From the sequence record MK327941.1: a stretch of 64,000 bases of DNA; one strand, written 5' to 3'. The translations under genes were made by a program, and so were the position numbers. This document shows, piece after piece, positions 38,887 to 43,719 of this stretch. The notes beneath the pieces were generated by a model. That model saw nothing but the letters and a program-made list of their open reading frames with translations, did not search any database and was not told the DNA's origin. Numbering within the stretch: position 1 is the stretch's first letter; each line of letters opens with the position of its first letter. The DNA comes from Escherichia phage vB_EcoM_G37-3.

Positions 38887-39363
38887 TTAATCATGACCGT
38901 GATTTGCAATATCCGCTCGCGTCTTATCTTTGTGATTTCCTACGTCAAAGACACGATAACCATTTTCACGCAAAACTTTAATCACTTCTGGGTTATCCTC
39001 AAAGACTCCGACAACTTCATCTTTATCAAAGGATTTAATTACCTCTAATTTGATGTGATAGTCTTTACGGGAATCGGTACGGCCTCTCATAAAGATTTTA
39101 TCAAAACACACCCCGTTAGAAATTAACCAATCAATTGTTTCCATGTAAGCATGTGAACTTCGTCCGGTGAGGATGTAAATCAAATGCCCGTTGTCGGAAA
39201 GAGCATTAATAACACGAATTACATCGTAAATGGGGGAATCTCCCCCACATGCCTTGTTATATTCGATCCATGACTCGACTTTATCAAGATTTTCGGTTGG
39301 CATCTTTGCTAGTCGATGCGTTGGATCTGTGATCGTAAAATCTAAATCGACAAAATATATCAT
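38887..39363 (-). CDS. HAD-superfamily hydrolase-like protein
   Basis: N-terminal DLDFTI (DxD motif I). Confidence 0.4.
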   Translation of the reverse strand: MIYFVDLDFTITDPTHRLAKMPTENLDKVESWIEYNKACGGDSPIYDVIRVINALSDNGHLIYILTGRSSHAYMETIDWLISNGVCFDKIFMRGRTDSRKDYHIKLEVIKSFDKDEVVGVFEDNPEVIKVLRENGYRVFDVGNHKDKTRADIANHGHD

Positions 39364-40523
39364 AGATATTTCCCGAATCGGTTGTAGTCGTCGTCTGTTA
39401 AATCGGTATTAACCTGAGATACCAGATACATAATCTCTACTTCTTGCGCTGCATTCTGTACTTCGTCAGAGTTCAACCATTTACGCATCCACGGTAACGG
39501 ATGACGACGAACACTAAACGGGCTTTTCAGTCCGGCAGCACGCATACGGGAATCTGCCAGGTATTCTACATAGGTTTTCAGAATTTCCGGTGACAGGTTA
39601 GGAATTGCCCCCATTGCGAATAGGTGGTCTACCCATTCTTTTTCTTGCTCGACAACATCCAGAAAGATTTTCGTTGCTTCACCTTCAAGTTCTTCCGCAA
39701 TCTGTTTCCACTCATCACCATCAACCCCCGTTTGCCATTGACGAATAATGTATTGTGTGCCTTTTAAGTGAAGTTGTTCATCACGCGCAATAAATTTCAT
39801 GATCTTCGCGTTACCTTCCAGTAAACCACGTTCGGCAAAGCTGAAAGTACATGCAAAGGACACATAAAAACGAATTGCTTCCAGTGCATTGACGCAGTGT
39901 GCACACAGATAAATCGAAGCCATCAGATCTCGTTTTGTATCTTCAAAAAATCTTCTTGCATCATCTAATGCTGTCTGGTCGTCTCGTTCTTCCCAATAGC
40001 GGAGATCTTCTTTTGCATTCTCATACTTACGAATCCAATAAAGAACATCATCATAATATTTCCCGATAGATTCCGCTCGCTTCATGATAGCAGGGTTATC
40101 GATGATCTGGTCGAACTCACTAGCCGGATCAATGAAACAGTTACGCATAATGTGTGTATAGCTTCGGCTATGAATCGTTTCGCTGAATGTCCATGTTTGC
40201 AACCATGTATCGAGAGTTGGATCAGATACAATTGGACCAAATACACGGGCTGGCGCTCTGCCTTGAATCGAATCTAGCAAAGTTTGATAACGTAAGTTCT
40301 CGGTGAAGAAACGCTTTTCAACATCGCTCATATTCAGATATTGAATGCGGTCAGTTGCAAGTGAAATCTCTTCTGGACGCCAGAAAAATGACAACTGCTT
40401 CTCGATCAACTCTTCAAATACTTGATGACGCTGAATATCATAACGAGCAATCCCTAAATCACTACCAAAAAACATCGGTTCGGTCATAATATCAACATGT
40501 TCACGATTAAATACGCTCATCAC
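39360..40523 (-). CDS. nrdB: Ribonucleotide reductase small subunit
   Basis: 387 aa; R2-type ferritin-like motifs; synteny. Confidence 0.85.
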   Translation of the reverse strand: MMSVFNREHVDIMTEPMFFGSDLGIARYDIQRHQVFEELIEKQLSFFWRPEEISLATDRIQYLNMSDVEKRFFTENLRYQTLLDSIQGRAPARVFGPIVSDPTLDTWLQTWTFSETIHSRSYTHIMRNCFIDPASEFDQIIDNPAIMKRAESIGKYYDDVLYWIRKYENAKEDLRYWEERDDQTALDDARRFFEDTKRDLMASIYLCAHCVNALEAIRFYVSFACTFSFAERGLLEGNAKIMKFIARDEQLHLKGTQYIIRQWQTGVDGDEWKQIAEELEGEATKIFLDVVEQEKEWVDHLFAMGAIPNLSPEILKTYVEYLADSRMRAAGLKSPFSVRRHPLPWMRKWLNSDEVQNAAQEVEIMYLVSQVNTDLTDDDYNRFGKYL

Positions 40524-41062
40524 TATTCTCCATCAATTTTGTTTATATTGTAACCCATGTTGCCTTTTTCTATTTCTCTCAACGCAACTGAATTAAACGC
40601 TCTTGCCGCATCTTGTTCGCTATCAAATCTCCCTATATGAACACTCTTTCCTTGTATATTAATATGAACTAGCCATCTATTTGTGTACTTACACCAACTT
40701 ACCCCGTTATATTTTGATGATGCACCTTTAAATTTAGTTCTGTTTCGATTGTTGACAGAATAATCAGTACCTCGTAAATTTTCTATATGATTGTTCAGCT
40801 TGTTTCGGTCGATGTGATCTATAACTTTAGGCTTATGCCCGTGAAACATATGATAAATCACATGATGTATTAACTTCTTTCTATTGTCTACTGTTAGTTG
40901 AAGATATCCCCCATTATGTGGACTTCCAACCTCATCACCAACTTTAACTTTATTGCTTGTTGAAACCTTTCTGAAAAGTTTACCATCTTCGTATTTAAAT
41001 AGATAATGATACCTTTCGTAAAGTATTCGGTCCTCTTCCGTATAATGTATTACCTCATACAT
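40523..41062 (-). CDS. HNH-AP2 homing endonuclease (mobE-like position)
   Basis: HNH (HHVIYH...IDHIDRNKLNNHIENLR) plus AP2 domain (YNGVSW...GRFDSEQDAARAFN); located between nrdA and nrdB. Confidence 0.65.
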   Translation of the reverse strand: MYEVIHYTEEDRILYERYHYLFKYEDGKLFRKVSTSNKVKVGDEVGSPHNGGYLQLTVDNRKKLIHHVIYHMFHGHKPKVIDHIDRNKLNNHIENLRGTDYSVNNRNRTKFKGASSKYNGVSWCKYTNRWLVHINIQGKSVHIGRFDSEQDAARAFNSVALREIEKGNMGYNINKIDGE

Positions 41063-41079
41063 AATATTTTACTCACTTT

Positions 41080-41245
41080 TTAACACAAAAGAACTTAGTA
41101 TTTCTGTTAACTTCGCTATCCTGCTGCAATTCCTGCACAGCTTCAAAACAATTTTGATGTGATGAAAACTCTACGCTGGTAACAGTTCCTTTATTATATA
41201 CGCCTACGCTAACGGAAAGCAATAACCATACAGTAGCCATTATCC
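41080..41245 (-). CDS. Small hypothetical protein (55 aa)
   Basis: ATG start; hydrophobic N-terminus MATVWLLLSVSVGVY. Confidence 0.3.
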
Positions 41246-41407
41246 TACAACCTCAAAGCATTTATCATCAGGAAGAATAGCCCATTCTACGCCATATTCA
41301 TCCTCAACGTAGTAGCAAGCCCCATCATGTCGAGCATCATATACATCACCGACAACAAAGCTATCAGCTAGCTAAAAATCTACAGCAACACATTTTAATT
41401 TGGTCAT
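41243..41407 (-). CDS. Small early ORF with in-frame TAG at codon 12
   Basis: Early promoter and GTGAGGA RBS precede ATG 41407; MTKLKCVAVDF-TAG-LADSFVVGDVYDARHDGACYYVEDEYGVEWAILPDDKCFEVVG. Confidence 0.3.
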
Positions 41408-41438
41408 AATAAAATCCTCACTTGTTTTTGATGGTTGT

Positions 41439-41467
41439 ATTATAGCGGGGATTTCTCCCCGCGTCAA
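41439..41467 (-). promoter_or_regulatory. Early promoter with palindromic spacer (PeSL-type)
   Basis: Minus strand TTGACG-CGGGGAGAAATCCCCGC-TATAAT. Confidence 0.65.
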
Positions 41468-41475
41468 CAGTTATT

Positions 41476-43719
41476 TTACAGCTTACAGGATGAACACTCG
41501 CTAGCGTCTTCCGTACCATCAGCACCATCACGCACGTTAGCGTAATACAGTGTCTTGAGGCCGTAATATTGAGCAAACAGCATATCATCTAACACATCAG
41601 CAATATCGACTTTACCAGTCTTATAAGTGCTTGGATCATAGGATGTATTGGAACTAATCGCCTGATCTACAAACTTCTGCATGATCGCTGCCAGTGTCAG
41701 ATAGGGCTTGTTACCTTTCTTGATCAGTGTCCAAAGCAGGTCAATAACATCAGCATTATTCTCTACGTTCGGAATAACCTGATTAAATTGCCCTTCTTTC
41801 GATCCTTTAACCGATACAATCCCGCGAGGCGGTTCAATACCGTTTGTGCTGTTAGATACCTGAGAAGATGACTCACAAGGCATCAGCGCCGAAAGCGTAC
41901 TGTTACGAATGCCATATTTTTTCAGGTCTTCGCGCAGTTCTTCCCAATCCATCTCATACACCGGATCAACCAGTTCATCTACTGTCTTTTTGTACCAGTC
42001 GATAGGAAGTTCACCGCGACCATAGCGTGTTTCGTGCATCAGTTCGCAAGCACCCTTCTCTTTAGCCAGTCGCACACTAGCCTTAATCAGAGCATATTGC
42101 AAGCGTTCAAACGTTTTATGCGTAAACTCGTTAGCGTCTTCATATGTGAAGAAATTATCTGCTAGATATGATGCAAAGTTAGTCACGCCAACGCCCAGAG
42201 ATCGACGTTTTTTGGCTGTCAGAGCTTGTTCTACAGGATAATCCTGATAATCTAACAGGTTGTCAAGTGCACGCACCATAACCATAGCAATGCGTTCTAC
42301 TTCTTCCATATTTTCGATATCGAAATTACCTAAAACATATGCTGCCAAAGTACATAGGCTAATTTCTGAATCATCACGACCCATCGGTTTTGTTGGCAGA
42401 GCAATTTCACAACACAGGTTAGATTGTTTAATCGGTGCTACATTACGAATAAACGCCCCGTGATTGTTCATGTTGTCTGTGAACGCTGGATAGATTCGAC
42501 CAGTGTTAAAACGTTCAATTGCCACCGCTAAAAACAGGTCTTCGGCTTTAACACGAGTTTTACGAACACTCGGATCTTTTTCCAGTTTTTCGTAAAGCTG
42601 ACGGAAACCTTCCTCATCTCGGAAGTACAGATCCCACAACAAGCCACCTGCAACATCTGGACTAAACAGAGTAATGTAATCCCGTTTAAGGAATCGCTCT
42701 ACCATCAGGTTATTAATCTGTACGCCGTAATCAAGATGACGAATGCGGTTATCTTCTACCCCCTTATTGTTCTTTAACACAATCAGACTTTCAAACTCTA
42801 AATGCCACATTGGGTAATAGAGAGTCGCCGCCCCGCCACGAATACCGCCTTGTGAGCATGACTTAACGGCAGTCTGAAAATGTTTCCAGAATGGGATAAC
42901 TCCAGTATGACGAACTTCACCATGCCCGATCTTAGATCCTTCCGCGCGAATCATGCCAGCGTTGATACCGATACCAGCACGCTTGCTAATATACTTGATG
43001 ATTGCATTTGCGGTTTCATTAATACCCTGCAATGAGTCATCACTTTCAATCACCACACACGAACTAAATTGGCGTGTTGGGGTACGCACACCTGCCATAA
43101 TCGGAGTAGGCAGAGAGATTTGCTTATTCGCAACCGCATTATAAAAATCAATCACATGTTCAAGTCGATTTTCTGTCTCTTCTTGATGCAAGCACATACC
43201 GATCAGCATATACGCAAATTGCGGTGTTTCGATGATTTTCTTAGTGCTGCGATCCTGAACAAGATATTTCTCTTTTAACTGCATCGCACCAGCATAGGTC
43301 ATTTTAAAATCAAGTTTATGGTCGATGAATTTCTCCAGATATTCCACTTCTTCACGGGAATACTTTTGCAGAATTTCACGATCATATTTTCCGGTTGCAA
43401 TATTACGCTCAATATGGCTGTAAAAATCAATCGGTTGGAATTGACCGTATACTGATTTGCGAAGCGCGAACATTGCAAGGTTACTTGCTACATATTGATA
43501 ATCAGGTGTTTCTACAGTAATGTTATCTGCTGCGACCTTAATCAATACTTTCTGGATATCATTGGTAGACATACCTTCTGTCAGAAGTGGTTCAACCATA
43601 TCAAACAATTCATATGGATCAACGTTATGACCTTCGGCTGCCGCTTCCAGAATTTTCATTACTTTTTCTTTTTCAAACGGAACAGTCAGACCGGAAGACT
43701 TAACAACATTTTTAATCAT
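41476..43719 (-). CDS. nrdA: Ribonucleotide reductase large subunit
   Basis: 747 aa; ATP-cone N-terminus, C-terminal CSSCKL-type tail; synteny. Confidence 0.9.
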   Translation of the reverse strand: MIKNVVKSSGLTVPFEKEKVMKILEAAAEGHNVDPYELFDMVEPLLTEGMSTNDIQKVLIKVAADNITVETPDYQYVASNLAMFALRKSVYGQFQPIDFYSHIERNIATGKYDREILQKYSREEVEYLEKFIDHKLDFKMTYAGAMQLKEKYLVQDRSTKKIIETPQFAYMLIGMCLHQEETENRLEHVIDFYNAVANKQISLPTPIMAGVRTPTRQFSSCVVIESDDSLQGINETANAIIKYISKRAGIGINAGMIRAEGSKIGHGEVRHTGVIPFWKHFQTAVKSCSQGGIRGGAATLYYPMWHLEFESLIVLKNNKGVEDNRIRHLDYGVQINNLMVERFLKRDYITLFSPDVAGGLLWDLYFRDEEGFRQLYEKLEKDPSVRKTRVKAEDLFLAVAIERFNTGRIYPAFTDNMNNHGAFIRNVAPIKQSNLCCEIALPTKPMGRDDSEISLCTLAAYVLGNFDIENMEEVERIAMVMVRALDNLLDYQDYPVEQALTAKKRRSLGVGVTNFASYLADNFFTYEDANEFTHKTFERLQYALIKASVRLAKEKGACELMHETRYGRGELPIDWYKKTVDELVDPVYEMDWEELREDLKKYGIRNSTLSALMPCESSSQVSNSTNGIEPPRGIVSVKGSKEGQFNQVIPNVENNADVIDLLWTLIKKGNKPYLTLAAIMQKFVDQAISSNTSYDPSTYKTGKVDIADVLDDMLFAQYYGLKTLYYANVRDGADGTEDASECSSCKL

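Follow-up and report, generated by a model that had tools for sequence, protein, structure and literature searches.

Probable recent loss of ORF233, a small early accessory gene, through a nonsense mutation in an RB49-like coliphage

An in-frame amber codon in a small early ORF of Escherichia phage vB_EcoM_G37-3 (MK327941.1) was found to interrupt a reading frame that is assigned here, on the basis of synteny and similarity, as the ortholog of RB49 ORF233, located directly 3' of nrdA. The feature is best explained (probability of about 0.85) as a nonsense mutation that has recently inactivated a small but real early accessory gene. The stretch of DNA analysed, referred to here as the window, spans 64,000 nucleotides of this genome, and the feature within it is of a common type, an accessory ORFan gene turned into a pseudogene by a nonsense codon. 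The locus, which is read from the minus strand, encompasses the following features:

41476..43719, minus strand: nrdA, ribonucleotide reductase large subunit, upstream (stop codon TAA at 41478-41476)
41439..41467, minus strand: sigma-70-type early promoter with 11/12 consensus matches
41445..41462, minus strand: 7-bp GC-rich hairpin GCGGGGA-GAAA-TCCCCGC within the promoter spacer
41415..41421, minus strand: Shine-Dalgarno (SD) sequence GTGAGGA, 7 nt 5' of ATG 41407
41372..41407, minus strand: translated part, as read from the sequence, with ATG plus 10 codons (MTKLKCVAVDF) and then the amber codon
41372..41374, minus strand: amber codon TAG at codon 12, with T at gene nt 34 (window 41374) in place of the G of GAG (Glu12)
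41240..41371, minus strand: rest of the ORF233 ortholog (codons 13-55 and the TAA), presumably untranslated and otherwise matching intact alleles
41073..41240, minus strand: downstream 55-aa gene, an ORF232/ORF231 chimera (phrog_5579), whose ATG overlaps the ORF233 TAA (TAATG)
40523..41062, minus strand: gene for a free-standing homing endonuclease of the HNH/AP2 type, located 3' of the small ORFs and 5' of nrdB (context)
39360..40523, minus strand: nrdB, ribonucleotide reductase small subunit, downstream (context)

The start signals, the TAG at codon 12 and the 43-codon extension described in the original prediction, i.e. the promoter, the GTGAGGA SD and the ATG at 41407, were all confirmed in place. 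On the minus strand, the promoter consists of a -35 element TTGACG (41467-41462), a 17 nt spacer and a -10 element TATAAT (41444-41439). The ATG (41407-41405) opens a frame that meets TAG at 41374-41372 and then remains open for 43 codons up to TAA at 41242-41240, with the conceptual translation MTKLKCVAVDF*LADSFVVGDVYDARHDGACYYVEDEYGVEWAILPDDKCFEVVG. With uniform codon frequencies, the probability of 43 open codons is ~0.1, a length that is not beyond chance alone. The promoter and the GTGAGGA SD were shown to be invariant across relatives, and the record of phage GEC-3S also annotates this promoter.

The 17 nt promoter spacer itself is almost wholly occupied by the hairpin, with a GAAA loop, and is likewise invariant in relatives. 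The hairpin starts 14 nt past the nrdA stop codon and is not followed by a T-run at its 3' side, and terminator prediction at this position called no terminator. Folding of the 86-nt leader returned -21.2 kcal/mol (z = -3.4). On transcripts reading through from nrdA, the spacer would give a stable stem-loop, and it may represent an RNA-stability or processing element superimposed on the promoter.

The window region was found to match 58 deposited records of phages, which represent 52 unique genomes and are without exception Krischvirus, at 90-99% identity; none of these records is identical to the window region, the best reaching ~97.5% over 12 kb. Krischviruses are RB49-like, T4-type coliphages, in which nrdA is followed by small ORFs, in some cases a homing endonuclease gene, and then nrdB, and RB49 carries three tandem small genes at this locus, i.e. 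ORF233 (55 aa), ORF232 (57 aa) and ORF231 (55 aa). When Glu is restored at codon 12, the translation of the interrupted ORF matches phrog_16302 over positions 1-55 of 55 (E = 9e-42) and is 96% identical to protein P0001. Synteny is retained, the ORF being the first gene after nrdA, behind the TTGACG/TATAAT promoter and the GTGAGGA SD. RB49 ORF233 (RB49p233, NP_891804), phi1p233, Sf20 gp102 and phiS gp098 share position, promoter, SD, start codon and 55-codon frame with the window, at 93-99% nucleotide identity and, for phiS, a distance of 1 nt. These orthologs carry GAA or GAG at codon 12, whereas TAG in the window would cut the product to 11 residues. Because this TAG leaves the window without an uninterrupted 55-codon frame, its copy is classed as a pseudogene allele, and not as a functional member of phrog_16302.

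Alleles of RB49, G2494 and others have GAA as codon 12, and a second allele group has GAG; one or the other is present in all 52 relatives except phage ELT3. Of the deposited loci, 28 were read directly, while all 58 records were included in a span analysis. ORF233 was undisrupted in 43 of the 52 unique relatives, 26 of which were read or are identical to RB49, and 17 of which were called from an unchanged 168-nt span (KMB43, PTE-Eco09, W115, TB34, GoldenSnicker, SAP, OZ035808, 011D4, Delraymugoa, Aragogtheria, PHB13, SSG23, SFHK24, JK32 and Makalu 1-3). It was also intact in all ten additional, divergent relatives that were checked, and in the only two loci recovered by a protein-based search of IMG/VR. 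Metagenomes, when scanned for the codon-12 region in any allelic form, yielded only two contigs, both with GAG, which are too few for allele frequencies.

Comparison of 22 unique alleles (repaired) gave a pS of 0.114, a pN of 0.023 and a pN/pS of 0.20, indicative of a real coding gene on which purifying selection acts across the genus. The deduced protein is very acidic, with 13 D/E against 4 K/R residues and a pI of 4.05. Structure prediction using AlphaFold was performed from a single sequence (pLDDT 43) and with a six-sequence alignment (pLDDT 91.7, pTM 0.74), the latter being the model used. The predicted fold, in what is a confident model, is an SH3-like five-stranded β-barrel with strands at residues 2-6, 22-27, 32-35, 41-44 and 51-54. 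Strand 1 alone precedes codon 12; as the amber codon thus spares only this strand, the 11-residue product is predicted to be unable to fold.

Foldseek comparison of the model with the PDB returned SH3 domains at a TMq of ~0.6, with non-significant E-values (E >= 0.17). Comparison with BFVD, where both sides are predicted models, returned many tiny uncharacterised phage proteins, including DUF7244 members, at TM 0.7-0.84. Among these, a 62-aa protein of Klebsiella phage GH-K3 is modelled as a five-strand barrel like that predicted for ORF233 (TM 0.84, rmsd 1.5 Å). Small SH3-like proteins of the DUF7244 type are, at ~55-62 aa, of the same size as ORF233 and equally uncharacterised, and provide a clue to fold and none to function. 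A Pfam search of ORF233 returned DUF7244 and DUF6150 alone, both below threshold, the DUF7244 match being weak (E = 0.023, 15.2 bits against a gathering cut-off of 27), and both this match and weak tblastn matches agree with the structural comparison. The PHROGs family matched by ORF233 carries no functional assignment. A word-indexed search of 5.8 billion proteins detected no copies of ORF233 beyond Krischvirus, while HMMER, run exhaustively against 1.84 billion representatives, contributed a single further relative (48% identical, 58 aa) on an uninformative 935-bp contig. The other HMMER matches were repeat proteins and were judged to be spurious, and a profile search of PDB sequences with ORF233 returned nothing significant.

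These comparisons bear on the suggestion in the original prediction that the feature might be two unrelated short ORFs, or on the related notion of a natural leader peptide of 11 codons with non-coding DNA behind it. The bare sequence allows such a reading and offers nothing more in its favour. Against it, the homologs represent one continuous 55-codon ORF with a pN/pS well below one and a confident single-domain predicted fold, and TAG is present at codon 12 in only 2 of 53 genomes, i.e. the window and ELT3. No in-frame ATG, GTG or TTG was found in the 43 codons 3' of the TAG, so the remnant codons would be incapable of separate translation. Both halves therefore form one gene in related phages and the TAG is not a natural stop; the two-ORF reading was rejected, its probability being negligible. 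Programmed stop-codon read-through or recoding was also considered and was excluded, since the TAG is not conserved and the other genomes carry GAA or GAG. The 11-codon ORF and the 43 open codons that follow should accordingly be annotated as one pseudogene, an ORF233 ortholog, rather than as two ORFs or, as in the ELT3 record, left blank.

The intact phiS allele (PP449093) and the window copy differ at one nucleotide (G34 versus T34), from which it follows that the lesion is a single G>T transversion converting GAG to TAG. An amber mutation or a decayed gene had been among the explanations first offered, and this part of the original prediction proved right, as a conserved gene was found to be interrupted by one nonsense change. 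Relative to the RB49 protein, the window copy also encodes E22V and T30A; both also occur in G2248, Cognac, Brandy and phiS, the alleles of which are intact, and are regarded as ordinary polymorphisms and not as decay. Since the gene is otherwise undecayed, the mutation appears to be evolutionarily recent.

A TAG-specific 44-mer was matched at 100% in one of the 58 records, that of ELT3 (PQ368571; listed host MG1655), while the exact TAG 27-mer had no matches in IMG/VR. The ELT3 allele carries the same G34T amber at codon 12 in a gene that is unannotated in its record, and a literature search found no paper on this phage. Its copy is of a KFS-EC-like haplotype, which differs from the phiS-like window copy at nt 65, 79, 162 and 164. 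The occurrence of the same G34T on two haplotypes implies either recurrent mutation or movement of the change by intragenic recombination. The 600 nt upstream of ORF233 are mosaic, with no single nearest genome, so that the ambers of the window and ELT3 may or may not be identical by descent.

This second occurrence is also relevant to the possibility of a sequencing or assembly error, in which the true base would be G and ORF233 would be intact. The changed base adjoins a run of four T residues and the genome was judged from its assembled sequence; however, the change is a substitution rather than a change in homopolymer length, and the identical change is present in ELT3, an independent GenBank genome, which makes a sequencing error extremely unlikely. 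G34 lies directly 3' of the T4 run, and the same run bears an additional T in kaaroe, FL04 and FL38. Polymerase slippage with or without realignment ('dislocation' mutagenesis) yields such substitutions and frameshifts, and would be a plausible origin of both the G>T and the +T lesions. Two kinds of lesion at the 3' edge of one T4 run plausibly mark a mutational hot spot, and the shared G34T together with the adjoining +T site points to such a hot spot or to very short-tract recombination.

If the allele were instead a suppressible amber, arising as a laboratory mutant or through propagation on a suppressor host, the TAG would be read as an amino acid and the full 55 aa would be made. TAG is the classical suppressible codon, the remainder of ORF233 is undecayed, and supE44 is carried by many K-12 laboratory hosts. 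However, relatives tolerate unsuppressible frameshifts in ORF233, and the gene is dispensable, judging from the lesions carried by viable relatives; with a dispensable gene, there is nothing to select an amber for. A conditional-lethal amber presupposes a gene needed for growth, and disrupted ORF233 was found in nine viable deposited phages. Furthermore, MG1655 is a sup0 strain, and ELT3, with MG1655 as its listed host, has the same TAG. Neither a tRNA gene nor a suppressor gene was detected within the 64-kb window, and a crude scan of the window for other stop-interrupted genes returned non-coding frames only, none of them convincing. As RB49-type genomes are reported to carry 0 tRNA genes (PMC2993671), no phage-borne suppressor is in view.

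The classical amber mutants of T4, which are in principle suppressible by supD, supE and supF hosts, resemble the window allele in having an early TAG in a gene of a T4-type phage. They differ in that they affect essential genes and were kept on suppressor hosts, whereas the window allele lies in a dispensable gene and occurs in independently isolated phages. A suppressible amber is thus considered highly unlikely, and the related proposal that the codon is an amber carried by a laboratory strain is probably not correct: ORF233 is non-essential and frameshifted in viable relatives, the TAG recurs on another haplotype in the separately sequenced ELT3, a different null allele is present in an uncultured metagenome scaffold, and the window has no tRNA or suppressor gene.

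For a recent nonsense allele, the strong early promoter would still be expected to drive transcription, and ribosomes to initiate at the SD and ATG. In a non-suppressing host, ribosomes would release the 11-residue peptide MTKLKCVAVDF, which should be unable to form the barrel, and the remaining 43 codons would persist as an untranslated relic. If near-cognate tRNAs read through UAG at a low level, or if the host were supE/supF, some full-length protein would nevertheless be made.

The lesion may also affect the next gene. In T4-type phages, TAATG stop/start overlaps are interpreted as evidence that translation of the two genes is coupled (PMC2988022), and the downstream 55-aa gene was presumably coupled to ORF233 by analogy. 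Given this overlap, a premature stop 130 nt upstream would probably lower translation of the 55-aa gene, whose own SD-like motifs are weak and badly spaced (GAGG at -14 and AGGA at -6). This gene is itself a chimera, in which the first 10 nt derive from ORF232 (MATV...) and the rest from ORF231. Comparison of window 41220-41240 (minus strand) with loci L001 (1761-1960) and L002 (1759-1780) revealed the loss of 173 bp through a deletion that joined the nearly identical 5' ends of ORF232 and ORF231, the crossover lying in TATGGTTATTG at 41230-41220. Among the surveyed genomes that keep the cluster, the same deletion was observed only in FL20, in which ORF233 is also null. ORF232 is retained in FL37, which has a near-twin of the FL20 ORF233 allele, and in ELT3, whereas the window has lost it. 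In both lineages, ORF233 appears to have been lost first and ORF232 second, a sequence-based hint (n=2) that the small-gene cluster decays as a unit.

ORF232 and ORF231 (phrog_5579; window 41073-41240, minus strand; L001 1761-2101) are paralogous; their N-terminus, MAT[VLI]WLL[LI]..., is hydrophobic and two Cys residues are conserved. They resemble small early proteins that are anchored in a membrane or secreted.

The homing endonuclease that follows in the window is a 179-aa HNH_3 plus AP2 protein, the stop codon of which overlaps the nrdB start, and G2494 and G5211 carry the same insertion. Other Krischviruses have a different homing endonuclease, of ~215 aa, which replaces ORF232 and ORF231 (JSE, FL15 and AV108) or follows ORF231 (phiS). 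The nrdA-nrdB slot of T4, with mobE, is a known landing site for free-standing HNH endonucleases with UAAUG-type overlaps (PMC2988022), and corresponds to the genomic slot of the HNH/AP2 endonuclease in the window. Krischvirus ORF233, ORF232 and ORF231 differ in that no T4 counterparts were detected, and the window endonuclease is not the carrier of the amber codon.

Elsewhere at the locus, nrdB of Cognac (L018 1229-1478) and Whisky (L026 1174-1468) is annotated as two overlapping CDS (228 nt and a second piece), which could reflect frameshifts, sequencing errors or introns; nrdA of Whisky is also annotated short. In IMGVR_UViG_3300045988_033703 (L011, upstream of 2501), 417 of the 600 positions 5' of ORF233 differ from the nrdA 3' end of all other relatives, which suggests that DNA was inserted or rearranged between nrdA and the promoter.

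The window allele is not the only null allele of this gene. ORF233 was found to be null in 9 of the 52 deposited Krischvirus genomes, in addition to the window and three raw assemblies, representing at least nine independent lesions. The lesions observed, together with one in-frame duplication, are as follows:

Codon 12: amber (G>T), in the window and ELT3
Codon 11/12: +T in the T4 run, which creates TGA as codon 12, in kaaroe, FL04 and FL38
Codon 4/5: -A in an A4 run, in pEJ01
Codon 31: -2 bp, in FL20 and FL37
Codon 40: +T, in AV108
Codon 41: ochre (GAA to TAA), in JEP8
After codon 26: in-frame 21-bp tandem duplication, possibly still functional, in GEC-3S
Codon 29/30: -G on the window/phiS haplotype, in raw assembly SRR15275265
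Codon 24: +AT, in the 91-kb metagenome scaffold ERZ28586303
Codon 50/51: -1 nt, in raw assembly SRR4051861

In GEC-3S (L005 706-894), the duplicated segment GATGAATATGATGCTCGAC[G/A]T repeats residues 21-27 to give a protein of 62 aa, and would extend the predicted barrel in its β2 region.

Across the genomes surveyed at this locus, ORF232 and ORF231 (342 bp) were undisrupted wherever present, with zero lesions. If lesions fell at random over the 510 bp, the probability of all six deposited-genome events falling in ORF233 would be ~0.0013, a post-hoc value. FL04 and FL38 share their null allele with kaaroe, and FL20 shares its allele with FL37, among genomes of 89-97% ANI from different studies (PMC12032242). 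Since null alleles are common to distinct genomes, and one was found in an uncultured metagenome, they evidently circulate in nature rather than being laboratory artefacts. Purifying selection on intact copies, combined with recurrent and persisting null alleles, suggests that the gene has a conditional value or a conditional cost, and its inactivation next to unbroken neighbours points to conditional dispensability or counter-selection.

Under the stronger form of this idea, the intact protein would be conditionally harmful in some hosts, such as K-12 MG1655, for example by being sensed there or by interfering with a host component, and null alleles, this amber among them, would be positively selected rather than products of neutral decay. 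At least nine independent lesions in a 168-bp gene otherwise under purifying selection, their absence from the adjoining 342 bp with the low post-hoc probability given above, and the sharing of null alleles between genomes of 89-97% ANI, suggestive of spread (PMC12032242), are in line with such an adaptive knockout. In addition, ORF233 was null in 6 of 8 genomes isolated on MG1655 and in 3 of 44 others (Fisher p = 1e-4), but Danish origin produces the identical 6/8 versus 3/44 split, so that host and geography are fully confounded. Moreover, intact ORF233 was observed in phages grown on K-12 hosts, namely kvi and FL15 (MG1655) and Phi1, JSE and JK32 (other K-12 strains; JK32 by span), and the protein thus does not prevent growth on K-12. 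Several of the lesions also fall within short homopolymers, and could reflect mutational hot spots or sequencing error, and the 17 span-only genomes were called intact from span and annotation. Positive selection for the null alleles is therefore a possible but tentative interpretation. The more specific proposal, that ORF233 is costly in some hosts through recognition by or triggering of a defence system or through toxicity in K-12, with the amber as one of at least nine escapes, is unlikely though not negligible. Both are rated this low because host and geography are inseparable and intact copies occur in phages grown on K-12. Most safely, ORF233 is read as an early accessory gene that the phage can do without, and of which the window carries a fresh null allele.

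If ORF233 were indeed costly in some hosts, this ORFan would represent a natural 'sensitivity determinant' found from the recurrent null-allele pattern alone. Purifying selection, repeated inactivation and untouched neighbours together constitute a cheap computational pointer to accessory genes whose cost or benefit depends on the host. The class of genes so marked, i.e. anti-defence factors and defence triggers, is now being sought experimentally, and the 55-aa ORF233 is nominated as a candidate.
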